Source of the DNA: Leptogorgia sarmentosa
Lineage: Eukaryota
Reading direction: 5' to 3'
DNA length: 64,000 nucleotides
Assembly: GCA_964658305.1 (NCBI GenBank)
Contig: OZ210885.1
Span: 10,602,001-10,666,000 of the forward strand
In this document: piece after piece, positions 3,237-52,600 of the stretch
How positions within the stretch are numbered: position 1 is the first letter of the stretch
Layout: every line of letters starts with the position of its first letter
Position numbers and translations under genes: made by a program
Notes under the pieces: generated by a model
Told to the model about the DNA's origin: nothing
Database searches by the model: none
What the model saw: only the letters and a program-made list of their open reading frames with translations

Positions 3237-3708
3237 TTTCAACGTTTCGAACAAAGGCTCTTTATTGTGAATTCGCGGTTCAGAAGGGGCACATTCTTCA
3301 ATCAAATGTTGTAAAGATGTGCCGGGGCGAAAGGTGTCTTACAAAATTCGTACACGTATTCGTATCACAAAAACGTACCGCGCGTGCGTACATAGAAGCA
3401 AACTGGTATCATTTTGTATGGCACGGCATTTGTCTACTATATTCGGGTTCTCGGCACGGGTAGAAAAACGGCACGAGTGCCAAAAATAGAAATGTTGACA
3501 AGTTGTTAACACATAGAAATTTCACGATGCCGTTCCAATAAAAACCGGCACCCGTAAATGGGCCTTTAGTGCCACGTATTTTGATGTTATCTGCATTTTA
3601 ATGTATGGAGTGCATAAAAATGTTATGAAATTCATTGATTGCAGCTGAAAGTCTTTTTAAATTGCGTATACTTAATTCACGTATATTTTATTTGTAGATC
3701 CCTGTATA

Positions 3709-4297
3709 ATGGAAAGTTACATATCAGATGAAGAATCCAGATGGGTTGTAACAGGTATTTGCCTTACCAAAGTTGTCACTCCCACCTTGAGGAAAGTTGT
3801 CGATGCAGAATTGAAGAGATGGTATCAAGACTTATGTAAGCCACCTGATGAAATTGACAAACAAACTTCTGGAAAGTATAAGAGAACACTTCCGCCATCA
3901 ACCTTTTCCTTACAATATAAAAACATCAACGGCAATAATGTGGGCAAATCTCCCAGTGCATATGACTACGCGGTGAAAGATGCTCTGTCTTTGGCAAAGT
4001 TGTTCGTTCAACCCTTCATGGCAAAGTTTACAGGTTTTGACGATACAATGGATCTTTCTGCTTTACTGACTATCATGTGTGAAGCAGATCCATTCATAAC
4101 ATCTGGTGCCTCAGTGTACGCAAAGAATGTAAGGTCAAACGTGAGAAACGAATGGGCCCATTGTAACTTTCCAAAATGGACCAATGCTTTGTTCAATGAC
4201 GCGATTCAGCACCTGCAATCGTTGGTGAAAAATATAAATTTAACAACTGCGGCTGAAAAAGAAGTGTGTGATGATCTTGAGGATTGGAAAAACAAAG
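3709..4297 (+). CDS. NLR coding exon 1: HEPN-like domain (Rx4H = RNEWAH)
   Basis: Acceptor tttgtag ending 3697 just before the ATG implies an upstream non-coding exon. Helical domain with DLSALL and RNEWAH (R146/H151). Donor AAAG|gtaatg, phase 1. Confidence 0.85.
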
Positions 4298-7200: not shown

Positions 7201-10200
7201 TAGGCTTAAGGTTAAAGCATTACCATATTATTTAGATTATTATAAAAGGTACATGTTGTTTAAATAATATGGTATTACTTTACCCGTAACTTGTCTTGGA
7301 GTCCGCTGGGTCGTCCAGGGGTTAGTAACTTATCCACATTTGGTGAGGTTTGTAACTTACGCACTCGCTGAGGCGAACTCGCGATGTCCGAAAACTGTAT
7401 TTCCCGCATTTTCTTCGCTTAAATAAGACCTTTGGGAATTAGCTTGGAATTTGCATTGAAAATTAATGAATATCCAATTATGCATTAAATTAATGGGTAA
7501 TCACGCAGGAAGCAGCGCATAATCCAGTTCTCGCAGTGACAACACTGCGGGCAGCAAATTCAACAACACTTTAATAACTTGTACAACATGCTCCATATTT
7601 CGAGTCGATTGAATCAAAATTCGTGAAAAGAACATAGTTTTTGTGCCCAAGTTATTTTTAAAATGCTCTCCAGCATGAACATTTCCCACTCTGAAAAAGA
7701 AAGGAAAAAGATTTAAATAAACTCAGTGCGAGATGTACCAGAGGGTGTCAATCTGCATAGGTTAACTCAACGTTTTCACAGATTTCGTTAACGCACGTTA
7801 ATTTAAGGAATACTTCATACACTAAACTTTTTTTTGACACGCCCTGTATTTAGTCCTTGTTTCGCTTGGTTGTTCGAGATTCTTGGCTCCGCTGTGTTAC
7901 CCTTGAATTAAAAGTACTATTTAATATATCTTTAATCGGATTTGCATAGGAGTTAATAATGTACGTGGCGCGTTCCTTAAACACTCTCTAAAGTTTTAAT
8001 AAGCTGAAAGGTATAGTCGTACTGCAGTGAAGTCATTTCCAGGCTGTCTAGTGTGAAGACACTCAGCAAAAAGACCATACAGTATCTTACATGTAATATT
8101 TTTCTATCTATTGCAGAGCGATAAAGAATGTCTTGTAGTTCTTGATGATGTTTGGAATGTTAACGACGTTGCTGTGTTTGATACCTTGTCTGAAAAATGT
8201 CAGTTATTGATAACTACCAGAGATGTCAATGTTGTCCGCGGTTCAAAAGGTTTTGTCTACGAAGTCGATATAATGGAACAGGATAAATCTCGAGAGCTAT
8301 TTTTTCAAAGTGCTGGGATTAAGCAAGATGAACTGCCTAGCTTTAGTCCAAAAATGCAGCAAATTATTCAAGAACTATTGAAACAGTGCAAAGGCCTGCC
8401 GCTGGCCCTCTCGCTTGTTGGCTCAAATTTAAACGGCAATCGGTCGAAACAGGCTTGGCAAGATATTTTAGATGGATTTACTACTGATTTGGAAGAACTT
8501 CATTCAGTGGTTGCCACCGACAATTATCCTTATGATAACATCGTTACAGCCATTAATATTAGCTTTGAACGCTTAGAACAATGGGAACAAGAAAAGTTCC
8601 TAGATTTTGGTATATTTCCAGAAGATACAAATATACCTTCAGATGTACTGGAGCTGTTTTGGTCCGCAGAAGGAGCCGGTAGAACATCGTGTGAACCTAG
8701 GAAATCAAGACGTATACTTGATGCTCTTGAAAGAAAATCCATGATTCAAAAAGGTACACGAGCGATGTTTTAGTAAATCCTCACATTAAAATTACTCTAA
8801 ACCGCAAGTCGTGCATTGAATAACTGTCCTTTAAGTCAGAAGTCAAGTTGCAAAACAGTTTTTATGTTTGTATTACTATTTATTAGACAGTTTTAAAAAA
8901 ACGAAAACCTACTGTCCGTTGGATATCGCTTGTCAATGCACCAATGTCAGTAACTGATTGATGCTTGACGTCCCAAAAATCTTTTTTTCAGTACCTCAAC
9001 TTCAAGAGAAGACAAGCTACCGTGTGCATGATTTACTGCTGGATTTTGCCCGGAAAAAACTTAAAGTCACGGGCTCACTAACTGGTGTTCAGCGTTTGTT
9101 TGTGGAGACACTTCGTGGCCAATGCGTCAACGGTGAATGGAATGAAAATTCAACTACCGCGCAAAAAGACTATTACTTCAAGTTCCTTCCCTATCACATC
9201 TCCTCCTCAGAACAACACGGTGAACTACTTCAACTGTTCTTCGATTTAAACTGGCTTCAACAAAAAGTGAAACACATTGACCTACCGTCCGTAGTATCAG
9301 ATTTTCGTTTTTTGGGCACATTGTCACAGGAAACCCAACTCCTCAAATCATCGTTAATGTTTTCTTCCCACGTTATCGAGAAGAATGCTGATTCAATCTG
9401 TCCACAACTGCTAGGTAATAAAATAATGAACTTTATTTTATCAACGTTTCCTATAGTTTAGTTTACTTTTGCATTATCATTACCATTCCATTCTTTCCCC
9501 CATGCTACAGTCGTGGGAAAAAAATTGTAACAGCCCCAAAATCAAGGTGGGAGATTTCACGTAGCAACATTGAATTGGGGGGGGGGTCGAACGTTGGATT
9601 ACAACAACGTTTGTTCAAGATTCAATCTTGAACAAAAGCGTTGTAACTCCCCCCCCCCCCCAAAATCAATGTTGTTGTAAGCCGCTGCTTATTTCCTTTT
9701 CGTAAACGGTCGTTGGCTTCCAAAACGGTCATTACCTTCCCTGCTCACATTTGAATGTTACATAATACATTTCCACTATAAATAGTTTTGTTTTCGAAGA
9801 ATTTCAGCGAGCTCGAAATTTGCTCAGACGGTTAGGCGCACGATGCATCCAAGGGCGTCAATCCTGGGGGGGGATGGGGGGACGCGTCCCCCCCACTTTT
9901 TGAAGTGGGGGGGGACGAATATGTAATTATCCCCCCCCACTTTTTATCATGTTTGAAAAAATTGTTTTTTGGTAATCTTAAAACCCCATGCCTGTATGCT
10001 ATACATCGTGAATTGTGAAGTACAATCAACAATCTGAGATCAGAAGAAAACTATTCGGAGCCTTGGAATAGTTCTGCGAATGAAATCTTAATTGGAAAGG
10101 CAATAAACGGACCTCAGCCACGTACACACGTTCAAATTTGCTTTTGTTTTTATTGATCATTTTATGTACAACTAGTACTGATATAATTGTTAAAGAAATC

Positions 10201-28691: not shown

Positions 28692-31600
28692 TAATGACCT
28701 TGGATTTTGCAATCTTAAAGATTGAAATACATCGTGAAAAAACATTTGACGCCATCTTATTGTAAACTTATTGTAAACTTATACGATAAGTTTACAATAA
28801 GATGGTGTCAAATGCTTTTTCACGAGGTGCCTATAACTTTTGCACAGTACTGTATATCAACTTCATTCAAACCTGTATGATGACGGTTTCAGGTCAACGT
28901 ACTCATAACCCATGATAGATAATAATTGAAGTATATGAATATGTGACCAGTGTAGGTAGCAGATGGCAACATGAACAACAAATAAAGGTCTACTCAATAC
29001 ATATAAGGGATATACAAATGGATTTGACGTATCCCGCAAAAGGCCCTCGGCGGGAATTAGTGTAACACACTATTCGATCCCACCGAAGGGCCTCTGCTCG
29101 AAACGTAAAATCTGTTTATATTATTTAGGTGGAGCGTAGACTCTTTGCTGCCTGTTAATAAAGCCACTACCAACACAACTGAGTATTTTAAATACAACTT
29201 TTATTTGTATTGTATGTAGTTAGATCATCTGGAAGCAGATTAACCCGATCGTAAAATACCCCCATTACTAAAATCCCCACCATGCAATTTGTCATCTATA
29301 CGGGAAAGACACTTACAGTACTATCTATTTTGTGTTGCTGGAAGACCCAGCAACAACTTACTGAATGCTGAAGTTCTGTCATGTACGAGTTTACATATTC
29401 GTGATGCGACACAAGATATATATTGTTCAAAATCGGTATCTATAGATATGTCTAATTGACATTTGATATAGTCCAATAAATATGAGGCTCGGAAATAATC
29501 ATGTATATAATAGATGACTAGAAGGGGCAAGAATCGTGGAAAAATTCATTTTGGGCAACGCATGCGTAAATAGTAATACCTGTGATCAACTGGTGAAAGA
29601 AATCAAATTTCAACTCCCCCCGCTCGTGTAGTGGAGGGGAGGTCTCATGCAGTAACAATTTATAACGTTCCTGTAACGGGATGGTTGTTCACATGTTAGA
29701 TAGCGCCATCCACTGAATAACTACATTAGTGAACACACCAATTCCTGAGGAAGGACGTTTCATCGAAACGTTAAATCTGTTTCTATCGTTTAGGTAGTGA
29801 TCAACACCGTTGCTCTTTGTTGAATTTCCTAAAACAACCCGTTAAAACTCTGACGCGAATAATACTTAAATATTTTGAAGTTGAATATTCTTTTTTATCA
29901 ATTGCCTGCTCCGTATCTGCGATTTTATACCTTCCCGAGCATTTTAACAACGGTTGAAATATTTGCTAACAAGTATCTAGCCCTATCTGACTTTTCCACA
30001 ATTGGCCACCGTTCCATGGCGGTTCCATTATTAGTCTAACAAACACTCCAATAGACTCCTGAACTCAAGCAAACGAGGAAAACTTTCTGCAGTAGCTTTA
30101 TTCACGAGGTTGTATACATGCAGTTAAACTGTTGAATGCATAAATAAAGTATGAAGACATAAATTGAACAAAATCATTAAAAAGATTGTGTTACTGAGGG
30201 TAATGTGCTTTCCAGCCTATATAGCCACTGATCTCCTACTACCGGATTTATCATCCTTTTGGATTCAGTCTGGAATTTTGAAGTTAGAAAATTTCTAATG
30301 AGATAAGATTCTAAAATGAGTGACATTGATCGCAGTTTCCATTAATGGTATCGCAACATTCATGGTCGGATTATAAAGAAAATGTCTTTGCAGTTTAAGA
30401 CATACACAGAGCTGGTCATAACTTTTCTAGTTCTTTCTAGAACGTTTTAACAGCTTTGTAAAGAATCACACAGCGTACATCTTCGTGTGACCTCATTAGT
30501 TATTCACGGGCAAATTTAAAAGGTAAAAGACACAATTTTTGGAGGAAATTTATTCAGGCAATGTTTAATAAATATTTCAAGTAATAACCTAAAACTGTAG
30601 GAACTTCAAAAGCACCACAGTGGATTTTAGATGGTGTCAGCAATATGGGCACATTTGGTTCATTTATGCATTCCCGAAGCTTTGTCCAGTCATATTCTAG
30701 GTCTGTTCTTAATACGTATATCTCGGAAATTAAAACGTAAAACCTAATCTAGAACGTATTAACTAATTTGTTGTGCTCTATCCCAATCCTTAAAAACTGC
30801 ATAACTTCTGGTTTATAATCGCTTTAAGTAGCACGCATAATATAACTAATTAAACCTATTTACAAAGTCATTCATGTGCGTGTTAGTTATTATATTCATA
30901 ATTAGTTTTGCTAAAATCAATGTAGTCACAAGTTTAAAGCGTTTTTTGCGTACCACACAGAAAAACTTTTCCTTTTATTTTCAAGGTGTGGAATTTGTCT
31001 GATGGCAGTGTGATCAATGGAATTGATAGCGATGGCACACCTGAGATTGTTCGCTTTAGTTCTGATGGGTTGCAAGTCATAATTGGATGCAAAGATTACC
31101 ATGTGTTCATCTGGGACTGGCAAAAGCCTGATGCGTCTTTGAAAGACGTCATTTTACCCGCGTCCTTTACAGTGGAAATAGCACGCGATCGCAACATGAT
31201 TTACACATGCAGCCGGGATATGCATACTTGTGAAATAAATCTCGACTCACTACAAGTATCGACTGTTCGTCAAGGGTCGAGCGTCCCACCAGTAATATCA
31301 CCCGACGGCAAAATAGTATCATTTGGGTCGCTTCAGAATAATGTGTTTTTCCACGGGAAACTGTCAACAAATAGTTTGGTCGAGCATAATGCAGGTGGGT
31401 AAATGGAGGAATATTTGAAACTTCTAAATACTTTTAAGTCATTGTTGCGACTACAGGGTATTGTACTATCTTTATACACGCAAAATTTATGTTTGTGAAA
31501 TATCCGTTTTAGTTGACAATATATTTCTCCGAAAAAAACAGTGCATTCAAATTACTATTGGATTCGATTTAAGAAATCGTCATGGCTTCACGTGCTATTT

Positions 31601-34600
31601 TCTGATTAAGAACAATACAATGAAAACGGTTTCATCGCGAGTATCTACAAGCTGATATGCATTATTTAGGTCGTGTTGCATGTAGAGAAAGAATACCAAC
31701 ACTACAAGATTGCTGTGGTATATAGAAATCCTATAGGATTTGCAGTACATCGTTGCTGCGGTGAATGTAAATCTCAATGCATTTTTAGCTGATCAAGAAT
31801 TTTTTCCCGTCATCCTTTTCAATTTATTTGCATTATACTGTATGTTATGTATATTTAATTTTGACCTTATCAAGATTAGTTCAGTTATCTCACTGTTTGG
31901 AAAGTGCTATAAAGGACCCCAACTACGAGCCCCAATTCTGTAATTCCAGTCATTTTTGACGCCAATATTGTATTTCCTGGGTCATCCTGCTGTTAAAAAT
32001 GCGGGATCCAGTTAAAAATAAATTAACCATTCGACTGTCAGTGATGAGTTTGATCGTCTATGATTTCCATTATCGCGCAACTTACCTTAATCCTTAAACT
32101 GCATTGTTCGTAAAACTGTATGATGACGATCTGCTACTGAAAACAATGCGATCTTGGAAAAAAAAAGAAAAAACGTAATTGTATGTAATTTGTCCCATTT
32201 GTTAATGATCTGGGTGTAACAGTGTGTATTTGTCTGAACCTGCTCGGCATGCAATAATTCACGACAAAACCAAGTATATAAAGATTTTATAGCTATAATG
32301 ACAAGATGGACTATTAGGACAGATTTTATATAAATTGGCTCCAATCCTATGTTAAGAAGTATTTCTTATTCCATGATATTATTTTCATTGAATATAAACA
32401 TCTCAAACAAGGTTATAAATGCAAAACAATCCGGTTAACAATTGACGTGCAGTTGTCTTGGAAAAATAAAACTGAAACTATTTGCCAAAAGGTAACAGCG
32501 TGAATCACTGCCGGCTAACCGTTTCTTTACCACAATATCCTTATTTTGATATATAACGCTATTGTTAGTCCGCACCATAGCCAGAATTCGCGGACATTTC
32601 AGCCCGCGCTATCTTCCCAGCGGCTGTACGAACAATGTCCTCAGAATTCATCAATACCCCTCGATATCCCTCAGCGTTTTCTCATCAAAATAAAAATAGC
32701 AAAAACAGCTGGTACTGAGAAACATAGTCCAACTGTCGAAACCATCTAAATCATCCGACTTGTTTCAACACGTATCTCTCCTCGTGAGGGGTCTCAGCCA
32801 TTCTGAATTTAAATTTTCACGCGTTGCTTTTTGGCAAAGCGCGTTTGCTGATGAATAGAGTCTCGGACTCACTACATATCTATAGGAAAAGGCTGCACCT
32901 CGAGAAAAATTCTTTCTCGCTCCACATTTTGGTACCAAACACGGCATATTATGCATTTTACTCTTGGGACATATTGGTGAACGATAAACTTCAGTTCAAT
33001 ACTAAACGTACACGACTGTTCCGATAACACAGTGGACTTTATTGATTTTGTAACATGAAAAAGCAGAGTGGCTATAGATCGCCAAAACATCCAAGATGAT
33101 GAAACGAATACAAAAGCCACTCGTTTATGCTAAAAGATTTCAACAATGATCGATTGGTGTCTAAGTATCGTGAAATTTGAATTTCAAGATTATAATTATT
33201 TTTCCGAAAAAATATGTTGTTCCCCCATCAAAATTATAAGTTAATTTCTTTGAATATTACTCGCAAAAACCGGAGCCCGGCGTAAAAGTTTATGGTAATT
33301 TGTGTTATTCACTGACTTGCTGTACTTATAAAATATTAATTGATATACTTGACAACTTCAAATGACTTTAAACGTTTTACTTCTTTCAGGTCACCCTGAC
33401 GACTCGATAGTTACAGCAATTGACATCACATCAAATGGGAAATTTGCTTTGTCTGGAAGCAGTTCAGGAACATTGTCACTGGTCGACGTAGAGTGTTCTA
33501 AAATAGTTCAACCCTTCTTCGCAAAGATCGAATCTGGAGTCGCCATACGTTTTGTCTGCGTATTAAGTGATGATGTCCGTTTCGTTTTTGTTGACGAAGC
33601 AAACAGGATCGAACTAAGAACTTTTAATGATACCGAGGCCAGCATTGATTTGGGTCAACCAGAAGTTAAAGTCACTTGCATTACTGCTCTTGGGTCAAAC
33701 TACGCATTGCTTGGTTGTGATGACGGAGAACTGTTATTGTTCCAATTTAACAATAACTCGCAGTTGAAGTTCCCAGCACACGAGGATGCCATTTCTCAAG
33801 TTAGAGGCGAGCTAGGAGGTCATGATCGTTCACGTCGCTTTGCATCGGGGTGTATCGGTGGGTCTGTGAAGCTTTGGAATGTTGAAGAAAACTTACTGAC
33901 GTTAATATGGTCACATGACACCATTCGTTCTCATTCCATTACCGCGTTAGAATTCGTGCCCTGCTCGGATGATATCATAATTGCTTCTGACGACGAGGTA
34001 TGTATATCATTTCCCAAACGAGATTGTCAAACGTTATTTTTAGGGCTTAATACTTGTTGTAGGTAGAGCTGCAATTGAAATTTCATGATGTGAAACAGCA
34101 CATGCACATACACATTATGAAGCGTTTCTAGAATTATTGCAAATTAACTTCGTCCCAATCTTCATTTTGAAAATTGGGAGGCCAATTCGGAAAAAATCCC
34201 CATTGTTCACACCATATCTGGAATAGTTTTGAATAGTTTTTTTTCTTGCTGGATGTTTGTTTCATTACCAGAAATGTGCGAGACGCAATAACCCGAAGCT
34301 ATAATTAAGAAACCGAATTTTAATTTGCAATATTAAAGTGTATATGAAATGAAAATTTCGTAAAAATTTTTCTTACATAATCTGAAAATTTCATCTTTTG
34401 CGAGCGTATTAATACCAATCTTGTTGAAAACTTCGAACTAGAAGTTTGCGAATTTTATGTTCAAAGTTGGGCTGTGAGACATGTTACCTGATGAAATTCC
34501 TGCGCGGCCAAAAGGTCGTTATGACGTATGCAGTGTGACACAGTGCGCTTTTCCTATATGTAAATACTACAAACAATGCTACCTCAACTGCGTTAAACTT

Positions 34601-37600: not shown

Positions 37601-40600
37601 TTAATGCAAATATCCAATTATGCATAAATTAATCGGTAATCACGCAGGAAAGAACGCAAAATCCAGTTTTCGGACATCGCACGTTCGTCTCAGCGTGCAC
37701 TAAATTTCTCAAAACTTGAATAGCTTGTATATCATACTCCATAATTTCATCCGATTAAATCAAATTGTGTGAAGAAAACTTTTTTTTCCGCGCAAGCCGT
37801 TTTTAATGGGCCTTTCAGTAACCACATTTCCAATTCTAAAAAAGTTTGTTTGTAAAATAAACTTAGTGGTAGATATACCAGAGGGTGTTAAACTACCCAG
37901 GTTAACCAAAAGTTTTTGGAAATTTTGAGCGCTCGTTAGTTTAGAGAATGTTTTTCATCAGTAAACTTTTTTTGATACACCCTGTATAATACCAAAATAA
38001 CAAAAGGTTTTTAGCAAGCTGCTGCCATTTTGGTGTATTTTGACAACATAAATCGCATTTACCTGATCGAGAATTGCGTGTAAATAAACTGCGATCACTG
38101 TCCGAAGAGCGTTTTGAAGAATGGATAGATGATTTCACTTCGTGTCATCGTATTGCGAAAAAATGTATCTTGCCCAGGCTTTTTAAAAACTCGGATACAT
38201 TACATTGCGTGATTATTTTGACTTCGTATCATCGTATCATGTCACTGCTTCAAAAGTGGACGGGTATTCTATAACCCTCCCGGGATTTTAAAGTTTGAGC
38301 GCTACGGCAGCACCATCCTTGCGATAGTAACTCCTAGTTAGCACGCATATTGGTGTAACTGAGCTAAAAACATATTGATGGATTTTGGCGTTATCACTGC
38401 GCCATTCGCGATTGGTTTTGCCGAAGGTCTTCGCTAGCGGCCACTGCTCAATTTTAAGTTTAATCCCCCTTCTTTATGTAAAGATTTTACTAATTTAGCT
38501 GCATGTTTTATGCGGCCGTAGTTTTCGATTCTTGGTACATCTGGAACCCAATTTATTTTAAAATCTAAGGCACGTTAATTAAAAATGGCTCTCACAAAAA
38601 AAAACGAAGATAATTGATGCGATTTGATTCAATCGGGTCGATATACGGAAAATAGGTTATATTATCGAGCTTCGAGAAATTTGGTACACGCTGATATTAG
38701 CCGGAGATGTCCGAAGACTTTTCAGCTGTTTCCTGAGTGATGAACAATTAATTTTATGCACGCTCGGATGTTTGCGTAAATTTCAACACAAAATTTGCAA
38801 TCCAATTCTCAAAGGTCCCTATGAAGAGAAGACACGCTTAAATGAATGCAAGAAAGAGTTTTGATTATGGATACAAAGTTTCCTAGAACAAAGACTGGCG
38901 CAATTAAGTGAAAATAAATGACAGTCAATCATCCAAAATATCTTGCCCACCAGAAGTCATATACTCAACTTTGAATTCCAATTTTGCTCCATGGCATGGA
39001 TTGAAAATGTTTATTTTCTGATGAATGTAATTTCCATTTAAGTTATTTGCCTGTTTGATTCCTGATAAGCCTAAATAGAAGGTATAGAGTGTAGATGTTT
39101 AGTACAACATGCAAGATCAAGATCTGTTGAAATTGCTCGAATGTCTATACTTGGGAAAATACTAAATTCAGGATTTAGTATTGTCAGAATTCTCATGCGT
39201 GTATTTTATTTCATGATGACGAATTATATTAATTAACTGTTCACTTATAATTGTTCACATGTAACCTTCATTGCATGGGTAGCAACTTTACCCGGTGCGT
39301 AATAAGGATTTTTTAGCAAGGGCATAACAGACATCAACATTGTGAATAGAGTTGATTTTCATGTTCGTATTGATTTTAGTCAATTACGTTGACGCTGATT
39401 GGCCCAACGTTAAAAATTGGGAAAACAACCTTGTAAAACAACGTTAACATTTTTGGTTTTCTTAATTTTTGTTTGACTTTGTTTGCGCACTGTGTAACTG
39501 TGTGATATACAAGTGACGCTATTAGTAAATTACATTTGCTCGCAAAGTATTCATGAAAAATTACACTCGTGTTTGGCAAAATTGCACTCGTTTTCCGCGC
39601 ATATGGCAATAATTTAGCAAGAATTGTTCTAATAAACGTGAATGATGAAATTTACATTTGCATTGTAATTACGAAACCCAACACTTCATTTAGGTTTACA
39701 CACATAAAGGACAGTTTACTTGATAGATCGTCCGTAAATTTACTGTTAAAAACTGAGGGGATAACACATCCATCCCCTCAGCCGAAAAAGTAGGTCACAT
39801 GTTTCATCCGATCCCCCTCCCCCCCTGCATGATTTACCCCCTTGCCTTGATTCACTCAAAATACCTATATTATGTAAAATAAATTCAAGATTTTCGATTC
39901 TGAAAATTACGCTTTCGAATCGGAATCACGAATTCGAAATACATAATAATAAGCATTTATAACTTAATAACGTTTTGTGAATTGGTGAGAAAATATTTAA
40001 TGGCAGGACGTAATATTGAGCAGTTTTTTGATAATTTTGACAGATTCATCAGGTAAATACAAATGGAGTCGTGCATAGTTACGAATACTTCTACATGGGG
40101 AGAATCCAAACAATTCGCGTGGTCCACAACTCTCTTTTTTGTGCTCATAAGAAGGCATATCGTACTGAAGCTGAAGAGAAAATCACAAAGTGGAACTTGA
40201 ACGGCACCGGGAGCGAAAGCAGCAGTATTTTCTATACCGAGAAAGTTTTAAGAATTAACAATTCTGGCAACCTGGTGGCTATATTAGGTATATAATTTCA
40301 TTGTTATTATTTTATTTTCTTCTCTCAATTGCACGAGTTGTGATCGGGTAATTCATCAGTTTCATCGAGTATAAGCGGAAGTTTCGAGTGAATAACATTG
40401 GAAAACTAGAAGAAAAACATTAGCATAGCCTTAGGGGCCGATTACATGGAGGATTTTCAACCCCGGGGGTTAAGTCAGCCCTGTTGACAGGGCTGAAAAT
40501 TCATCCCTGCCTCCATTGTAAACCCCCATTAAAAATTCACGCGATTACATGAGAAAAGTTTCAACCCAAGGCCGAGTTCAAACCCGGGGTTGAAATTTCA

Positions 40601-43600
40601 TCCTATTTTGGCATACCTGGGATAAAACTTCAGCCCTGGATTAAAATTACACCCGCGGTTGAAATTTTGCCATCTTTCAGCCCTGGGTTAAAATTGTGTG
40701 AGCATGCGTAGTAGCGCTAAGGCTGTCCACAAGATGCTCAGCAACTTTGGAGCAACTTCTACGATTTCAGGCAACTTTTCAAATTTCAGGCAACTTTTTT
40801 CTTTCGAGCAACTTCTTTTATTTTGAGGCAATAATCTAGTACATAATGAAAAAAACCAGCTGAAAACACAAGTTTACTGTTTACAGGTTCAATTTTCTTT
40901 TCCCCTTTTGGTATTTTTGCATAATAAATATTTTAAAGTTTAAACTGCCACGATCAAAATCCAAAAAATAATGGTAGGCATGTTTTACTTCATCTTGCAA
41001 GCATATAGTGGATCCAACCATAACACAACCTAACCCTAACCAACCCTTATTTCCCCATCTTACCCTGGATCCAATTCAACCTTGCAAGACGAAGTACTTA
41101 CCCAATAATACAATGGCGGACAATGACACTTTACCAAGCTCGAGCAGTGACTCTGAGGAAAATCCAGAAGAAAATCAGTCAACCGAAGAAAATCCTTTAG
41201 AGACAGCAGCTGCAGCGGGTGCCAGACTGAGTACACCAGATAAGGCTGACATTTCCCGTAAAAGAAAAGTACAAACCAACCCCACTGGAAAGAAAAATGT
41301 CCGTGGCACTGTCGGTCCAAATGTGTCTGCTTGGGAGCGACTGAAGGAGTTTAAAGACGACTATCTCACCGTGGAATCGGGTAAGCTGAGATGTGATGCA
41401 TGCAAAGAAACGATTTCTAAAAAGAAGAGCTCTGTGCAGAAGCACATTAAATCGCAAAAGCATATCAAATCAAAGGATATCATGAGGAAAAGCAAAATGA
41501 AAGATCAGAGCATCGTTGATCTCATGGCAAGAAACAGTAGAGCAAAAGGATCTACATTACCCGAAGATATGAGACTCTATCGATATGAGCTTGTGGAAAC
41601 TCTTCTAAAGGCGGGAATTCCACTTTCAAAAGCTGACGTGATGAGACCATTTCTCGAAAAACATGGGCATCGATTGACATCCCGCTCACATTTGGCTGAA
41701 TTTATTCCTTTGATTCTTAAGAAAGAGAAAGACACTGTTAAAGCTGAAATTGCTGCAAATGATAATTTTTCTGTAATTTTTGATGGCAGCACTAGGCTAG
41801 GGGAAGCGTTGGCTATTGTCGTGCGTTTTATTGACCAATGGAAAATCAAGCAAAGACTTGTTACATTAGAAGTTCTATCAAAGAGCCTTAATGCAGAACA
41901 ACTTGCACAGCGCTTAATCCAATGTCTGGCTGTTGAGTATGCAATTAAACCGAATCAACTTCTCGCAGCAATCAGAGATGGTGCAGCGGTTAACGGGGCC
42001 GGGTTGCGTCAAGTTAATTTTTACTTCCCCAACATTTTTGATGTGACATGTTTCTCTCACACAATTGATAACGTTGGTGAACACTTTCAATTTACAGTTC
42101 TAGAGACATTTTCAAGGTACTGGAACACAATGTTTTCTCTTAGTCCAGCTGCCAGGTTACTATGGAAGACTAGAACAGGCACAGCAATGCTCCGTAAGTC
42201 GAATACTCGATGGTGGAGTCTTTGGGAAGTACTCAATCAGGTAGTGGAGTATTTTGGAGATGTGGAGCCTTTTCTAAGAGAAAATGATGTTTCTCCCGCA
42301 TGTCGAACGAGGCTATTAGAATTGTTTGATGACCCAGTCAGTGTTCGTGACTTAGAACTTGAACTTGCAGCAATTATTGATGCTGGGAAGCACTTTGTTT
42401 CAGCGACATACTACTTTGAAGGGGATGGGCCTTTAGTGTTTAGCTGCTATGAGCATTTGGCAGCTTTGGCTCATGCAATAGCCATCGATTCTTATCCAAA
42501 CACTGAAGCAAAAGCTCGACAGTATGCTGCTGGAAATGTGCCATTATACAATCAACTAATTGCACAAGCAAAGGCTTGCATTACCCCAGGATTTAGATTC
42601 TACCAACAAAAGTTCAGCAGGGAATTTCATGCCACAGTCCGTGCATTCAAAGCTGCTCGATTATGCTGTCCAATGAAAGTGCAAGAACTGCACCCAGATG
42701 TAGCTTCGGTTCAGGAACTAAAGCAATTTGGATTTTTCACTGATGCTGCAATTGCCCAGCTTGTCGACGAACTTCCAAAGTATCTGGCCATTGCAGAAGG
42801 TGTAGAGATTGAAACGGAGGAAGGGAAAGTGAAGTGGTGGTCTGTTCATGAGAAGGCTCTTCCTAGCTGGTCAACAGCAGTTAAGAAGATTTTATTAGTC
42901 CAACCTAGTTCTGCTTCAGCTGAGCGGGTGTTCAGTTTGCTTCAGAATTCATTCAACAAACAGCAAGATGCTGCGCTGGAAGAAACTGTTGAGGTCTCAG
43001 TCATGCTAAGATATAACAAGCGAGATGACTAATACATGCTCGCGAAAAGAACAGAGCAAACAGTATATTTTTGTTGTGACTAATTGTTGTGTTACTTGTT
43101 TTAGCAAGTTGAAAGCTTAAGCATCATAAACAGTGACCAATTGGAAATTGTTGTTAATGTATTTAGGCAAAGTCGTGTGGTAATATTTGAAAACCAACAA
43201 TAAAATATGGAGCAACTTTTGAGCAACTCTTAGATTTTTTTAGCAACTTTTGGGCAACTTTCTGGGAAATTTTCAGCAACTTCTTAAAAAATTTGGAGCA
43301 TCTTGTGGACAGCCTTAAGTAGCGCATATTTATGAATTCAAGTGAGTGTCACGTGCAGGCATTTTCAACCCCTGTCAACAGGGCTGACTTAAACCCCGGG
43401 GTTGAAAATGCTCCATGTTATCGGCCCCTAACTCTTCAACATTCCGTTCGCGCACTTGTTGCCGCTGCTACTGCACAAATTGAATTGTCGTCGTGAACTC
43501 CAACGCCCACGATAACTCCACCAAACGATTTATTAAATGATTTATCGCTACAGTGATGCAAAGCATCACCGGGCGAGACTTGAGGCCATTCATTATATCA

Positions 43601-46600
43601 GTGACCTCTAAGATTACAGCGCGGCAGACTTAGAGGCCTACATGTGACGTACAGCACGCAAAGTCAAGCTTGCACTTTAAGGGCCTGTTTATATGATCCC
43701 TCTTAACCGGGATTCAATGAAGCGTCAGATGATCTTGAGGTATTGAAATGAGATACGTTTATGAAACAAAACACCCAAAGTTTGGACACTTTTAGTAAAA
43801 ATCAACAAAAAAGATATATTTTACAAAAATTGATGCCCAACAACATCTTGCGTGTTTGATATTTCAGCAGAACAAAATCTTGAGCAATCAGCAGTTTAGC
43901 ATTTCTTCAAATCATAAATGATGACTCATTTGAATACCTTAAAATCATTTTGCGCTTCATTGAATCCCGGGTGAGTGGGATCATATAAACATGCCCTAAG
44001 AAAGCCTTTTTAACCTCCCTGCGTAGGCGTAGCCGTGCAGCGGAGTCTTAAAATGTGCGTGTCTTTTGTCGTCGACGATGTTACAAACTTGCTTCTTGAT
44101 TAATAGGTACATCGGTGTAGGTTTATGGATAATTTGACGTCGGAGCCTTTGTTGTTTTAGGCAAGCACATTTTACTTCCTGCGTTTTGGCCGCAGTTATT
44201 GCGATTTGTAAACTATAAATATAACGAACGTGTAGCTAACAATTTAATTGAGTATATTGTCCTTATTTTATGCTTGATTTCAGCGAAATCTTAATTAAGT
44301 TCCAAAGGAAGGTATATTGTGCATTTATTTTAATAAGATTCTGAAATGAATCTGAAATTGCCGAAATAGCATATACGACTCGAGTTCGCAGAATAACTGT
44401 TAAATATTCGCGGGCCAATCAGGTTTGAATTTAGTGAGTATAGCTCAACGACGTCCGGTTTATCGCACAGCAAAGCGGGTACGCGGATATACAGGGTGTA
44501 TAAAAAAAACGCAATCCATGTTTAAGGCTTTATAACCAAAATAATATAGATTTCCATGTCTTAACTTTTAGTTCATGTTTTAGCCCTATCTTTTTTCTAC
44601 TCAATAAGTGGTCGATTGTGACTTTTTAGGCCATTTAGGACTTCAAAATAAGTGATTTACTGCAAGCAGTCATTTTTAGATGCTTCGAATTCGACGTTCT
44701 TAATTCCGAAGGGGACGTTATCGTTGCATGCGAATATCTTGTTTGAAATATTTTCGCGAAATAATTTTAAAGTCTTAGGCATCATGCCACAGCTCACTAC
44801 AGCAGAAATAATTTTTATTGTTGAAGGTTACTTTGTAACAAAAAGTATTCAGGAAGTTTTAAGATTGTTTCGAATAGCTTTCCCGGATCGACAAGTCCCA
44901 AATTCGACGACCGTTTGGCGTAACGTACTTAAATACCGGGAGATACAGGGGCGGATCCAGACCGATGCAACCGATGCGAATGCATCGGTCAAAATTTCCA
45001 AAAAATGAAACTTTAGCTAAGAATGAAGTGTACTTAGTGTTATTAAGTAATTGCTGAGTACTCAAGTCATTTAAACTTTAACTTTTGGCGAAAATTCAAC
45101 CCAATAATAAACGTTATAAACCCACAGAAAACTAATTCGCATGACAAATAGTACGATCTTCATGTTTATATTACCTTCCTAGTTGCCGCCGTAATTTGCG
45201 CGTCAAATCATCGTCTTTTCCGTTTCTAAACGCCCAGCGCTAATAATATGAATAAACCAATTTGTATCCGTCCGGCTCAGGCAAGCATACCATACGTCAC
45301 GTTACCGGACCATAATTTCCTGTGCATCGGTTGTGCATCGGTCCCTAGTCTTTTCCGCGCAGAGATGTACTGAAACGTCACCAAAACCATTGTTTTAGAG
45401 CTACGTCACGTTACATTTTGCACGCAGACCGATGCACTCTCACATAACGACGGCTCAAAACCACTGTTTTAGGGCCTACGTCACGTTACATTTTGCACGC
45501 AGACCGATGCACTCTTACAGAACGGCGGCTCAATGCATCGCCCCACCGATGCAGAAGGTATTCAGTCACATTCGTCATTAATTTGCATTTTCGAAGAAAA
45601 ATGGCGGCAAGTTGTATTAATATGCAAATGAGCTATGGCCTTTGCTCTTTACTTCGAGAGGATAATTCATCCGCGATCGATGTCTTACGACGGGAATTTG
45701 AGATGAAAGCTGTAGCTATCATTTCCAAGGCGAAGGCTTGGAAAAGGAATTTGTGTGCCAGAAAGCATTCAAGAGACCTGTGTGCTGAAATGCTGATCCC
45801 GAAGCACATAACCCAGAAGTGGCAGCGTGGCGAGTTACGAGCTGCGAAGTAAGGAAGCTAAACTCATTATCATATATTCATAATTCATAATGTGTTTAAT
45901 GTTTACCACGTAAAAAGTAATAGCCATATGATATAATATTACAGTATCTATGGATTATGTATATAATATATAATATTATTTATGTCAACATTCAACGTCA
46001 AACATGGGACACAGACTCACAGTGATACAGTCACACTTGATTTGTGAATGTGATCTCTGTTTTCATAGGAAATTTACAATTCGACATCGTCAAATTTAAT
46101 GTGTACATATAACATATTCCATCAATACATATAATTCAATGAGTAACCAGGATACCAGCTGTTTGTGTCTGTCTCTCTGTGAACCAAACAGATTGGTATT
46201 ATAGCAAATGAATATGGCATGTATTGGTATTTGGTACTGGGTACTGACTACTGAGACTGTAACTAATATTGCTATGGATTTATTACAATATTACAATATT
46301 ATCATGGTATTACAGGATTAGACTATTAGTGTCATAATTCATGTTATTTAACAATTAACCATGATATTGATTATAATATCACTTTACCCACTTTCAGAAC
46401 TCGTGGTGATGGAAATTGCCTATATAGAGCTTGCTCTAAGTTGCTGTGTGGCAATGAAGATCTCTGTCATCTATTGCGAGATCTTACAAGCATTGAGCTC
46501 TACCTACACCAGCAGTTTTATGCGTCCCATCCTTATGTGAAAGACATGAGCCAGCACTTCAATTCTGAAAACACAGCCTTTTCTGCAACAGCTTCAGACT

Positions 46601-49600
46601 CAGCACTGGCTGATGGCTATGATCGTCACAATCCAAGCAGCAGAGTGGCCGTTGTAAAACGAGAGGCAATTAGAAATGCTACCAGCGGTGCATTTTCTCC
46701 CTTAATGTGTCTGTTTGCATTGTCTTCAGTTACTGGAATGCCAATCAGGTCAGTGTATCCAGAAAAATTAGGCACAGTCACAAAGTACTCTCAATACCAA
46801 AATGGAGTTATTCACCCAAGAGCAGAGCACAAACGTTTTTCTGGGAAAGTAGTTCAAGAGATGGACCTCATTCTTCTTTGGTCTGTGGATAGTATGTCCA
46901 GTCTTCCATGTGGAAATGAGATCTTTCAGCCCAACCATTTTGTCCCTTTGGTGGAAGTTAAAGAAAAGGCCAGGGTACCACTAGCAGCACTACCGCCTCC
47001 ACCATTACCTCCACCACCACCAAGCATACCAGGAAAAGCAGCAGTCCCAACACCACCTCCACCACCACCCTTACCAAAAGCAGTAGTACCACCAGCAGCA
47101 GCACCAACCTTACCAGAAGCAGTAGCACTGCCAGTAGCAGCACCTCCACCAATACAAGTAGCAGTATCATCATCACCATCACAGGAACCACCAGCACCAC
47201 CTCAATCGGCACCGACATCATCATCATCAATGAAGGGCAGTCAGCAGCAAAAAATAACTGACTTGTTTAAGGCAACAAACAAGAAAGAAAATGGAAGTGA
47301 AGGTGTGTACTGTACTAGCTTCTTGGTCTTTTTACAGCATAAATGTGTTTACATACTGTATATATTATATACTATTGATATTTTCACATCAATTGCATAC
47401 AGCCTAGATTGCTGGTTTATTAATATAAAAATATTTCTTGTATGCTATCCATATTCTTGTGGCTTACAGTTACCACTTACCATGTTCCGCTATAAATGTG
47501 TAATATTTCTTCTTTTTATATACTGTATATGTATATGTATACTTAAATTCTATAATTTAATGATACATGTACATATGCATTCCGCACTAAAGGATATATA
47601 AGAGAGAGAGAAGAAAATATTATTAATTTGTCTAAAGTAATTCTAATCCATGTTGTGACTGTCCTTTGGTGTTCGACTTTGACCTAGTACATACTGTAGA
47701 GTCTAAACTCTACACCTGTTCTTCTTATTTCAGAATTATCTGCTCGAGATGGTGGTTCAAGTGACCTTGTGCCAGAAAAGGAGGCAAACCAATTGACTGA
47801 GAATGTCTCAGGGAATCTTCCAACAGCAGCAGGAGGACAACGAAAAAGTAAGTACTAGGAATTTTACTAGGTATTTTAGGAACATATTCTTCTTGTAAAG
47901 ATTCAACAACAAATATGCTAATAATGTCAATGGGTGTTAATTAGTCACTTCCTATGTAATTATAGGAAAACTTGTTTTGCAACCTGAACCACTAACACCA
48001 AAGCAATCGAAAACTGATGTTCCTGCTGTTAATCCGTTGGACATTGGGAACTTCATTTCCCCCCATACACATAAAGATAATGATGTCAAACTCAATCTTA
48101 TTGACAACCACTGGCGTCCCTCATCCTCATTTAACTTCCCTTATCGACAATTTGGCTCCAAACAGCAATCTCGTCGTAAGTTTTCTCATCTATGGTGTAA
48201 TCGCTGGTCTTGGCTTTGCTATTCGAAGCTTTATGATGGTGCCTTCTGCCTTGCATGTGTTTTGTTTGGTCACCAGACCGGGCGTAATGGTGATAAATTA
48301 ACAAAGCTTTTTAAAGAGCCATTGACAAATTGGCAAAGTGCTTCAACAAGGCTGGAGGAGCATGAGAAAAAATCCTTGGTCCACCAAGATTCAATGATGA
48401 AGCTTACCCAGTTCAGAAGTATCATGTTGGGGGAGAAGAAAGGCATTGATGAGCAAGCTGACAAGTTAAGGAGCGAGCGCATACAGTATAACAGGGGAAT
48501 AATGCAGTCCATAGTGGAGGCTGTTATTTTTTCTGGCAGGCGGAATTATGCTTTGAGAGGCCACCGTGATGACTCGCAGTATTACACTTCATCCAACCCT
48601 GGTAATTTCCAAGCCCTGCTCCAATTTCGAATTTCTGGAGGAGACACGAAGCTGGAAGAGCATTTTGCAAAATGCAAGAAGAATGCTACTTACCGTTCCA
48701 AGACCATTCAAAATCGCCTAATTGAGATTTGTGGGAAGCAGATTCAAGCAAAAATCATCGCTGAAATCACCACCAGTAATTGCCCAGTTTACTCTGTTCT
48801 AGCAGATGAGGCAACAGATTGTGGCAACAAGGAACAGATGCCAATCACTATACGCTTTGTGGACTCAAAGAATGAGATTCAAGAAAGGTTTATAAAGTTT
48901 GTCAACTGTGATGAGGGTTTGACCGGTGAAGCATTGGCCAAAAATATAGAGGACACGTTGAAGGAAGTTGGTCTGCCACTTGCCAATTGTCGGGGGCAAG
49001 GCTACGATGGAGCCAGCGCCATGTCCAGCATGAGGAAAGGAGTTTCCGGGCGCATTTTGGCGAATAATCCTAAAGCCATTTATGTTCATTGTACCAGCCA
49101 CCGTTTAAATCTTGCAGTTGCCAAGGCCTGTAACATCCCAGCTGTGAGCCACATGCTATCACAAGCGAAGAAACTGGTAAGTTTTTTTTCATCCGTTCCG
49201 CGCGGGCAATTATTATCGAAGAAAATGGAAGAGTTTGGTTTGAAACGTAGAAAGCTTCCAGCTCCGTCCACGACACGTTGGGTTCAACGAATATCCTCCC
49301 TGGACGGCTTTTTAGAGGCTTTCGAGGCAGTTTTCCGAACCCTGGAGTATATGCAGCTTGGTGGTGTCAACAAAGAGTTTGAAAGGTCGAGTAGTGACGC
49401 CCGTGCCTTCCTTCGCATCCTGGAGTCATTTGAGTTTATTGTGGCGATGGTAATCACAACGAACATTCTGGATTACACCATGTCTTTGACTGTCCAACTG
49501 CAGCAGAGGCAAATCGACATTGCAGAGTCCCTCAAGCAAATTAATTTGTTAAAAGCACAGTTAAAGATCTTGCGCACTTCAGTCGACGAATACCATGACA

Positions 49601-52600
49601 AGTTCTACGATGAGGCAGTGGAATTAGCCAATGAAGTTGAAGTAGATGAAAAAACTCCACGTATTTGCAAGCACCAAACTACTCGGGAAAACTACACTGC
49701 AAGTACCCCAAGAGAGTATTACCGACTAAAACTTACCATCCCATTTCTAGATCACCTTATTGAAGAGATGGAGTCACGTTTTCCTTCTGAGATGTGTAAC
49801 CTATACAATGGTTTTTATGTTATTCCTGCTGTTTTTCTTCACTGTAAAGATCTCGACTGGAAAGTTGAATTTATGAAGTTTGTTGCTGCTTATGAGGATG
49901 ACCTACCAAGTCTCCGCAGAATTCATGCCGAGTTAGACATGTGGGAGACCGCCTGGAAGCAAGGTTTAGAAATCATTGAGTATTCTTCAATTGCTGACAC
50001 CTTACGACATTGTAACCGAGTGGCATTTCCAAATATCTTCACGGCTTTGAAGATCCTTGCCTGCATACCCGTTACCACATGTGAATGCGAGCGATCTGTT
50101 TCCGCTCTGCGACGAACAAAGACCTGGTTGAGGACTACGATGGTTAATGAACGGCTCAACGGACTGACCTTAATGCACATCCACGACGATATCAAGATCG
50201 ATGTCTCAGAAGTGATAAACACTTTTGCCAGACAATATCCAACCAGGATGCAATTTCTCGACATCCTTGATGATGACGAAGCTGCCAAAAAACCATAAAA
50301 TTTACCTTTAGTCTCCTACTGCTGAAAATTATGGACATGACCCTCGTGCTGGTGTTGGAAGATAACTGGAACATTTTACTACATTCTCGTCTCAAGTCTC
50401 CTTTCTTGCTGCTGGTGTTGGACGAAAACTAGAACATTTTACTACATTCTCGTCTCAAGTCTCCTTTCTTGCTGCTGGTGTTGGACGAAAACTAGAACAT
50501 TTTACTACATTCTCGTCTCAAGTCTCCTTTCCTGCTGCTGGTGTTGGACGAAAACTAGAACTATTACTACTTATGGCACAGTGGCACTCCCGCACATTGT
50601 TGCTGGACCATCATATTAAACAAGGGAAGGGAGGCGCTTGATAATTTTTTTCTCTTCTTTGGCAGTGAAAAATATTATTGAGCGTTTGTTTTTCCAATTG
50701 TACTGTCATGTTCTTCCTGAGTTGGTGTCACACCAACCTTACTGCCTGGAAGGAAAATGCATTGTGGAAAAGGTAAAGTTGCTAGACGTCTCGTCACGGT
50801 GCTCAACGGTGTTATTTGCAATGTGCGCCTTGTTCTGCTGCCGCGGTAAATACGCGATTATACGCTACTGACGTCATAATATGACGTCATGTGACGTGTG
50901 TTGTGATGTCATAGATGACGTCATGGCTATATGACGTCAAAGTGCATCGGTCAAAAAATATTGTGGATCCGCCCCTGGGGAGATACAGTTTGAAGCAGAT
51001 GCTTTACATGGAAATCATGAACTAATAAGAAGAGTTGCACGGGAAATGCAACGTCGAAGTGATTTGTGTGTGGTGAGAAAGCCAGGCCACGTTGAATGAT
51101 TGTAACCAACTAAAGTTAAATTTTTAATAAATTCAAGCTATCTCAAATTTTAAATTGTCCAATCACACTTACTAAAAATATCATTACTCGCTCATTTCCA
51201 ACTCAAATTTAACAAACAAGCAGTCGTAAGAAAGCGGGAATGATAGAGCTTTCTAACGGTGGTAAATATAGCCTATTTTCTAATACTTTTCGTTATGAAA
51301 ATTGCATTTGAACGTAGGATTGCGTTTTTTTTTACACCCTGTATATTGGCCGAATTTTGTCATTCCTTCGAGAATTTTGGAGCGAATTTACGCTATTTGA
51401 TAAAACATCATTATTTTGATAGTTACACGGGATCCTTCTTGCTGGGAACATCGATTAATTTGGAAAGCGATATATTTAAATGCAAAAAATCGAGGATAGT
51501 TTGTGTGACATATCCCTCCTCTGGTCGCAATGTCTCCATCCTATTATTTTTAGTAATTCTCAGGCGGGCGCGAACAACCTGGGCCAGCTGTGGTTATTTG
51601 AGAGGTGACGATACCCCGGTTCCGGTTTACGGGTACTGGAACGGGAAATGCAGCCGTGCCAGTAACCGTAACCGGGGTATCTTAGCCTCTCTATTAGCTT
51701 CATAGGCCTGTTGGAAATTCTACTCAAATTCATCAAGAGTTGTAAAACAAAAACGGTGCAGCATGTTACAGTGGTAGAAACTGCCTGAACATACAATACA
51801 GAACGAAGGTCCAAAATTTTACTCGCGGTATGACAATGATTTTTCTAGCTCACCTATTCCTTCGCTTAATTCCTTCGGTCGTTATCAAAGAAACATATTA
51901 ACTAGGAACAAAATTTGCTCTGTCTCTAGCGCTGCCAGCAAAATTCCCGTCTAAGATTCATGCAACCAAGCACGCAACGTCAAGCTACTGTACGCAAGAT
52001 TATTGCAATTAAAAGCCTTTCAAAGCATAAAATATGTGAATATAATCTCAGCCATCGGCGCGTTCTGTGACGAAATTATCAAAAGTTACAAAAAAAAATT
52101 AAAACAGTTGATCAGACTTTTTATGTTACATCCATAAACCTGTCCTAACAAGAAGCACAGTAGATGACACCCCGCTTTCAACTGCGAAGGCGTAATCACA
52201 CTGTAACCCCTCACCTCCCGTTAGACGTGAAACTATGTTATCTACCAATTATTCGCGGGAAAAGTTTGAGCATTACTCAGTTTAGTCTGCATAGGTTTTT
52301 AATTTTGTGTCGGCTGTATCGGTCACCTTTATTACCAGGGACGGATTTTCATGTTTTTCACTGAGAGATGCAAAAAATTGTGGAGTGAGGGTGTCGATCG
52401 AACATCAATAAAATATTCTTGCGTGTTTGATTTTCTAAGTTAATTTGCCGCAAAAAAGCGTAGAAACATGTTAATTTTATAGCTACTTTATTGTTAGTAC
52501 ATTGACATTGTGGAGATAGATTTTGAAGGAGTGAACAATTTCTTCGTCCCTCACGAACTCTGCCCCTGGATAGTACGACAGACAGTTTATACCGCCCCTT

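Follow-up and report, generated by a model that had tools for sequence, protein, structure and literature searches.

We have analysed a window of 64,000 nucleotides of Leptogorgia sarmentosa DNA (assembly GCA_964658305.1, contig OZ210885.1, positions 10,602,001 to 10,666,000 of the forward strand); all positions below are those of this stretch. Positions 44946-50977 hold a hAT transposon of 6,032 bp that carries an OTU protease-like domain in front of its transposase. An earlier note, made from the letters alone, had described perfect terminal inverted repeats (TIRs) and a target-site duplication (TSD) here. Both were found. The 14-bp TIR CAGGGGCGGATCCA lies at 44946-44959 on the plus strand and, as a perfect inverted copy, at 50964-50977 on the minus strand, and the 8-bp TSD GGGAGATA stands outside it at 44938-44945 on the left and at 50978-50985 on the right. 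The left subterminal region (44960-45524) contains GACCGATGCA repeats, at 44960, 45427 and 45502 on the plus strand and at 44981 and 45334 on the minus strand, and a 75-bp duplication (45375-45524); both element ends carry the motif, on the right at 50943. The left repeats are likely candidates for transposase-binding sites. The 8-bp TSD, the short TIR with subterminal repeats, the DDE, CxxH and Trp residues and the C-terminal dimerisation domain of the transposase together identify the element as a hAT.

This copy is intact and recently mobile, as shown by insertion polymorphism in the contigs of four public DNA runs (X1-X4) from two samples. An X4 contig carries the empty site: 6,040 nucleotides are skipped relative to the window, that is, the 6,032 of the element plus 8, and the TSD is present as a single copy whose 8 letters fit either side. 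A similar joint is found in an X1 contig, and different flanks adjoin the left TIR in contigs of X2, X3 and X4. A contig of 4,320 nucleotides that covers the coding part has one difference from the window. Runs X1-X3 also contain an internally deleted derivative, with breakpoints at 46105/46112 to 50888/50902, in which ~1.16 kb on the left, including exon 1, and the final ~80 bp remain and the OTU and transposase parts are lost.

Between the ends lies a gene on the plus strand, for which the earlier note had claimed four GT-AG exons joined in frame. The join indeed gives 3,600 nucleotides and 1,199 residues with a single, terminal stop, in the order leader, OTU domain, disordered linker and PRKRIR-like hAT transposase. 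Exon 1 (45601-45848) begins with ATG and encodes a leader of ~80 residues and the first strand of the OTU domain, while exon 2 (46398-47302) encodes the OTU domain, a Pro-rich linker and a PIP-like motif. Exon 3 (47734-47847) encodes further linker that aligns to the linker of the relative P0014; since it is 114 nucleotides long and symmetric, the frame would also survive its skipping. Exon 4 (47966-50298) encodes the transposase, with a zinc finger, DUF4371, an RNase H core, the C-terminal dimerisation domain and the stop codon. All three introns run from GT to AG: intron 1 at 45849-46397 (549 nucleotides, phase 2), intron 2 at 47303-47733 (431 nucleotides) and intron 3 at 47848-47965 (118 nucleotides). 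No intron-skipping joint was found in the contigs of the four public runs, which keep the introns throughout and are for this reason read as DNA. From comparison with related sequences we infer that the four-exon model is spliced in the host.

That the OTU domain and the transposase are covalently fused, as the earlier note had claimed, is supported by relatives that encode both in one frame. The proteins P0014 (1,128 residues) and P0010 (1,096 residues) are single frames colinear with the four-exon model, with identities to it of 47-48% in the leader, which is the exon 1 product, 61-62% in the OTU domain and 73% in the catalytic core. A metagenome scan yielded seven loci (L001-L007) out of 242 pattern matches, and the two that encode the P0014 and P0010 proteins, L004 and L005, are fully intronless. 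L002 and L003 are 95.7% identical from the position of the L003 acceptor onward, and L002 has exon 1 joined exactly there. Whether they are transcripts or intron-less genomic copies, L002, L004 and L005 show the predicted join at the sequence level. An intron 1 acceptor (AG) lies at the same codon in L001, L003, L006 and L007, where L002, L004 and L005 have no intron; an AAG/GT donor follows the OTU exon, at a place matching intron 2, in L001, L002, L003, L006 and L007; and L006 also has a matching small linker exon and a third intron. We observe in passing that L002 lacks intron 1 precisely and retains intron 2; if this locus is genomic, it would represent exact intron loss in a DNA transposon.

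A search with the transposase, in which 7,983 candidates were scored and 743 matched at E<=1e-30, extends the comparison. Among the best 120 of these matches, 39 have an N-terminal extension of at least 150 residues in frame, and 38 of the 39 match the OTU profile. The catalytic Cys column is spanned by 14 of the 38 fusions, with Cys in 13, and the catalytic His is present in 37. Named fusion members come from Hydractinia, Clytia and Rhopilema; all are labelled PRKRIR-like, and their RefSeq and UniRef names mention no OTU. The Hydractinia fusion (1,134 residues) is present as two full-length RefSeq copies on different contigs, and several unnamed clusters have multiple full-length fusion members on megabase contigs. 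The earlier note had called for a check on other copies, and dozens of relatives retain the OTU domain; read from these sequences, the OTU-hAT fusion is an old, large lineage and not a one-off. One member of an OTU-hAT cluster, P0416, is filed at NCBI under a Bacteroidota metagenome-assembled genome, probably through host contamination of the bin.

The OTU cysteine-protease domain occupies 46399-46956 on the plus strand (residues 84-269), has a His loop like those of A20 and VCPIP1, and is recognised by Pfam, PDB profile, AlphaFold (AF2) and fold searches. The Pfam OTU model (PF02338) matches exon 2 with 25.8 bits (E 1.6e-5; cut-off 23.3), many relatives scoring slightly under the cut-off. With HMMER, 817 OTU relatives were obtained at E<=0.001 among 1.84 billion representatives, against four and two from word-index searches. 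From the best 150, 96 were aligned with two proteins from other searches and the window domain, giving 99 rows. The family profile matched VCPIP1 (E 3e-8), OTUD1, OTUD5, Cezanne and A20 in the PDB, while the single sequence matched OTUD1 at E 0.041 only. Similarly, AlphaFold required the 99-row alignment for a good model: the predicted local distance difference test score (pLDDT) was 93.9, with a predicted template modelling score (pTM) of 0.90, compared with a pLDDT of 30.6 for the single sequence. All 29 listed Foldseek matches of this model are OTU enzymes, and the VIA-align ranks 1-26 are OTU-type, the best being OTUD3 (Z 12.3, root-mean-square deviation 3.4 over 121 residues). The OTU fold that the earlier note had claimed is thus borne out, with the nearest solved OTUs only 17-24% identical to the window domain.

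The Cys and His codons that the earlier note had placed at 46417 and 46936 are both intact. The predicted catalytic Cys90 (46417-46419, plus strand) is Cys in 75 of 75 rows spanning the column. The predicted catalytic His263 (46936-46938, plus strand), which is followed by Phe, is His in 78 of 85 rows, and the second residue after it is Val in 71 rows. Of the D-x-x-C plus distal His signature invoked in that note, the Cys and His are therefore conserved, but the Asp is not invariant, being D in 38 and N in 18 of 64 rows. From established OTU chemistry we take this Asp to be an oxyanion-loop residue more probably than the third catalytic residue. We regard the OTU domain as a likely active deubiquitinase.

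The transposase part, too, has conserved residues. Pfam identifies DUF4371 and Dimer_Tnp_hAT (PF05699; 35.7 bits, cut-off 21.4) in exon 4, and a FAM200-ZBED5 RNase-like domain is also present. The catalytic residues Asp703 (48805-48807) and Asp770 (49006-49008), both on the plus strand, are D in 105 of 105 rows of the transposase alignment, and Glu1131 (50089-50091, plus strand) is E in all 101 rows spanning the column; the Cys and His of CxxH are found in 105 of 105 rows and the conserved Trp in 104. Among the best 120 of the 743 matches, the nearest named relatives are octocorals (Xenia, 67%; Dendronephthya, 64%), and named relatives are labelled '52 kDa repressor of the inhibitor of the protein kinase-like' (PRKRIR-like). 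The nearest Atlas cluster of P0014 is most frequent in Cnidaria, with the phylum known for 5 of 66 members. No relative of the transposase was found in the PDB. A THAP domain was not detected by Pfam in the first two exons or in the full-length relatives, so that the element departs from THAP12 in this respect. PRKRIR-like hATs are presumptively assigned to the Tip100/Zaphod group.

The earlier note had also proposed the ratio of nonsynonymous to synonymous substitution rates (dN/dS) of the OTU part as a check. By the Nei-Gojobori method, this ratio is 0.088 for L004/L005 (23 synonymous and 7 nonsynonymous changes; 0.17 for the transposase of the same pair) and 0.115 for L002/L003 (10 synonymous and 4 nonsynonymous). 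Distant pairs gave 0.08-0.24 where computable, with dS near or at saturation, including the window copy against its relatives, and for this reason our conclusion is drawn from the two close pairs alone. Both ratios, about 0.1, indicate purifying selection on the OTU domain. Its shared history with the transposase was examined in 39 fusions that cover 110 or more columns of the OTU, the near-duplicate P0002 having been dropped; median identity was 32% in the OTU and 41% in the transposase. Eighteen OTU splits reached 85 or more in the Shimodaira-Hasegawa-like approximate likelihood ratio test (SH-aLRT); 14 of them are also supported in the transposase tree and two are compatible with it. A Mantel comparison of the two parts over the 39 proteins gave rho 0.37 (p 1e-4); the identity correlation on seven proteins also gave rho 0.37 and was non-significant (p 0.10). 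The agreement of the trees and the Mantel result suggest that the OTU domain and the transposase have for the most part been inherited jointly over a long period.

The linkers between the two parts are 64-207 residues long across the fusions and unalignable. In the window copy, an expanded low-complexity stretch rich in Pro, Ala and Ser (46975-47230, plus strand), within which run X4 has a 12-nucleotide in-frame insertion variant, is followed by the PIP-box-like motif QQKITDLF (47245-47268, plus strand; residues 366-373). We call this motif a predicted PCNA-binding site from what we take to be the PIP consensus. Basic motifs occur in 43 of 48 linkers, compared with 22 in shuffles. The first loose PIP patterns showed no excess over shuffles in the 48 linkers. 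A PIP-like pattern that was picked post hoc (Q-x-x-hydrophobic then aromatic) is present in 33 of 48 fusion linkers (shuffles 6.1, maximum 15) and in 17 of 44 held-out OTU tails, some of which are close kin of the window copy (shuffles 5.1, maximum 13). Similar motifs were seen by eye at the N-termini of some OTU-less relatives (P0316, P0293 and P0307), so that the motif is probably the transposase's rather than the OTU's. This suggests that an ancestral transposase gained the OTU domain ahead of its own N-terminus.

With middling confidence, we propose that this intact PRKRIR-like hAT encodes an OTU-transposase fusion whose deubiquitinase strips degradative ubiquitin from the tethered transposase complex. 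The fusion protein would enter the nucleus via the basic linker motifs and may be brought to sites of DNA replication or repair by contact of its PIP-like motif with PCNA. Its hAT domain would bind the subterminal repeats and perform cut-and-paste transposition with an 8-bp duplication. The OTU domain on its flexible linker would reverse host ubiquitin marks, and with these marks removed the transposase would be extracted from the DNA and degraded by the proteasome later than otherwise. We infer both that the OTU acts on ubiquitin and what its substrate is. Helitron-encoded deubiquitinases have been proposed, in passages of Erven et al. 2022 (PMC9741609), to prevent proteasomal degradation of transposition proteins.

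Several observations weigh against this proposal or limit its reach. Among the best 120 transposase relatives, 81 have no OTU in the same frame, some of which may carry it on upstream exons as the window copy does. A group of 35 rows in the 105-row transposase tree lacks an in-frame OTU and includes full NCBI gene models, which indicates that the OTU is dispensable for some PRKRIR-like hATs. A second tree, of 59 rows after thinning at 62% identity, has an OTU-less clade nested among OTU bearers (SH-aLRT of the enclosing split 71), and monophyly of the OTU-bearing group is weakly supported. Two of the 18 OTU splits contradict the transposase tree. One of the 14 fusions spanning the Cys column has Ser in place of Cys, and His is missing in 1 of the 38. 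The strict PIP consensus is found in only 3 of 48 linkers, the PIP-like pattern having been chosen after the fact. According to passages of Erven et al. 2022 (PMC9741609), the OTU domains of transposons were still untested, and the present evidence fits the transposase or host chromatin as the OTU target alike.

The last point leads to a tentative alternative, which we regard as possible though on the improbable side, in which an active fused deubiquitinase acts on host targets at the break or fork, such as ubiquitinated PCNA, H2A or repair and silencing factors, and steers donor or target repair. The enrichment of the PIP-like motif in linkers and held-out tails would agree with such a role, and transposon OTU and Ulp1 domains have been suggested to act on DNA-repair factors (passages of Bao et al. 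2010, PMC2836005). On the other hand, like motifs are visible on some OTU-less relatives, and close relatives of the window copy are among the held-out rows.

It is unlikely that the domain is instead an active protease for a ubiquitin-like modifier (SUMO or NEDD8), or that it cleaves itself to release the transposase from a precursor. The low identity to solved OTUs leaves room for another specificity, and viral OTU and papain-like proteases process polyproteins or ISG15 (passages of PMC9741609). We looked for self-cleavage sites, and Gly-Gly occurs in 4 of 48 linkers, at the chance level of the shuffles (2.9), so self-cleavage at this site was set aside. Moreover, the residue right after the catalytic His, which we take to be the position of the aromatic gatekeeper of deubiquitinases, is aromatic in 41 of 45 fusion rows, as expected of a deubiquitinase. 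An aromatic gatekeeper motif of these enzymes is named in passages of PMC9741609.

We consider it quite improbable that the OTU is a non-catalytic or passively captured host exon, or that the locus is a domesticated host gene. The idea draws on human vertnin, an inactive OTU homologue (passages of PMC10318531), and on the coral protein P0208 (Desmophyllum pertusum), a relative of the window OTU that bears the UniRef name "Vertnin"; the vertnin likeness pointed out by the earlier note is echoed in this automatic name. Against it stand the invariant Cys, the low dN/dS and the tracking of the OTU and transposase trees, as well as the intact TIRs and TSD, the empty site, the other insertion flanks and the two Hydractinia copies on different contigs. 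A reading in which separate transcripts carry the OTU and the transposase, and the four exons join in silico merely by chance, is barely credible: no spliced reads of the window copy were seen and exon 4 alone has a long frame, but the complete fusion is encoded in colinear form by intronless relatives, and four to five other loci have introns at corresponding places.

The element can be set beside known systems. It shares DUF4371, the FAM200-ZBED5 RNase-like domain, Dimer_Tnp_hAT, the DDE, CxxH and Trp residues, the 8-bp TSD and the short TIR with PRKRIR/THAP12-like hATs, and differs from them in having a leader and OTU at its N-terminus, with no THAP by Pfam. Ginger1 elements of Hydra and other invertebrates have introns and encode an OTU-like or Ulp1 protease fused to the transposase in one protein, but their transposase is integrase-type, their TSD is CCGG/CCGT-specific, their TIRs are 40-270 bp long (Table 1 of the source) and the protease is C-terminal (passages of Bao, Kapitonov and Jurka 2010, PMC2836005). 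The window element, with hAT domains, an 8-bp TSD and an N-terminal OTU, is not a Ginger1. Helitron and Helentron proteins also have a built-in deubiquitinase domain with a proposed role in protecting transposition proteins (PMC9741609 and PMC11417382, in part); they differ in being rolling-circle elements, and the enzymes that have been characterised belong to the VTD rather than the OTU type (Erven et al. 2022, PMC9741609, in part). Helitron OTUs are often fragmented, as described in sections on HELIANO (PMC11417382) and in PMC9741609, whereas the hAT OTU is conserved and co-inherited. Vertnin (VRTN) was first noted for a transposase-like helix-turn-helix (passages of PMC3024977) and has an OTU-type fold; the human protein is a host gene product without the catalytic site (passages of PMC10318531), unlike the transposon-borne window OTU with its Cys and His. 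A20, Cezanne, TRABID and VCPIP1, together with OTUD1 and OTUD3, share the fold and the Cys loop, the His-loop sequence being VCPIP1-like, but are only 14-24% identical, and no orthology is claimed.

Protease cargo thus recurs across transposon superfamilies: it has been published for Ginger1 (C-terminal OTU or Ulp1), Mutator (Ulp1) and Helitrons (OTU) in passages of PMC2836005 and PMC11417382, and the hAT-OTU fusion is a further case, apparently undescribed for hAT. No description of an OTU-bearing hAT was found in the literature, with Repbase, Dfam, CDD, most subscription journals and supplements outside the search, and such elements are absent from the passages seen of PMC5751038, PMC9017028, PMC7599744, PMC13631171 and PMC5753468. 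Transposons have repeatedly picked up deubiquitinase and SUMO-protease domains, and help for transposition has been proposed since 2010. The OTU-hATs offer an old, intact and tractable lineage, with natural intronless versions, for asking why transposons carry deubiquitinases. Plasmid excision and integration assays are routine for the hAT superfamily. The role of Cys90 bears on the question of whether hosts use ubiquitin to restrain cut-and-paste transposition. The lineage also shows that the labels PRKRIR-like and Vertnin misdescribe a number of cnidarian proteins, and provides a lead on the origin of vertnin.

The same OTU family is found in other architectures. P0152 has it C-terminal on a hAT-like protein with a weak match to the transposase profile (E 9e-6), and in P0208 and P0142 it precedes a hAT-like zinc finger of a second type. 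In P0003 it accompanies SAP-like domains and a central part whose Atlas lead is an ISAzo13-transposase cluster (score 0.84), a transposase type that we assume to be linked to Zator. It is conceivable, although we regard it as doubtful, that the family is a mobile, transposon-owned deubiquitinase module serving as PCNA-tethered counter-defence against ubiquitin-driven removal of transposases, with vertnin as a domesticated, catalytically dead descendant; if so, the vertebral-number gene vertnin would derive from a transposon-borne OTU. Separately, P0050 has three tandem OTUs of this family before an LRAT domain.

A 63-bp tandem repeat (50347-50561, plus strand) lies directly 3' of the stop codon of the window copy. 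We note that its distant relative L005 also has a tandem repeat after the stop (3476-3665 of that locus), with a short TGCTG..TGTTGGA core common to both. The hAT is nested inside an outer, non-autonomous mariner-like element (44487-51346; ~820 bp without the hAT) with TA-CAGGGTG ends and a DUF4817 remnant (Pfam E 1.1e-6), which is at very high contig depth in all runs. Elsewhere in the window, exons of an NB-ARC plus WD40 (APAF-1-like) host gene lie at 3676-9461 and 30938-34066, its N-terminal domain having no Pfam match. A second, different hAT-like element (40431-43431), 1.5 kb upstream of the OTU-hAT, has 69-nucleotide inverted repeats and a 684-residue open frame (40978-43032) with a zinc finger and Dimer_Tnp_hAT and without a Pfam OTU match. 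Between the two hATs, a small element resembling a miniature inverted-repeat transposable element (43680-43997) has inverted repeats of 73 nucleotides that are 86% complementary.

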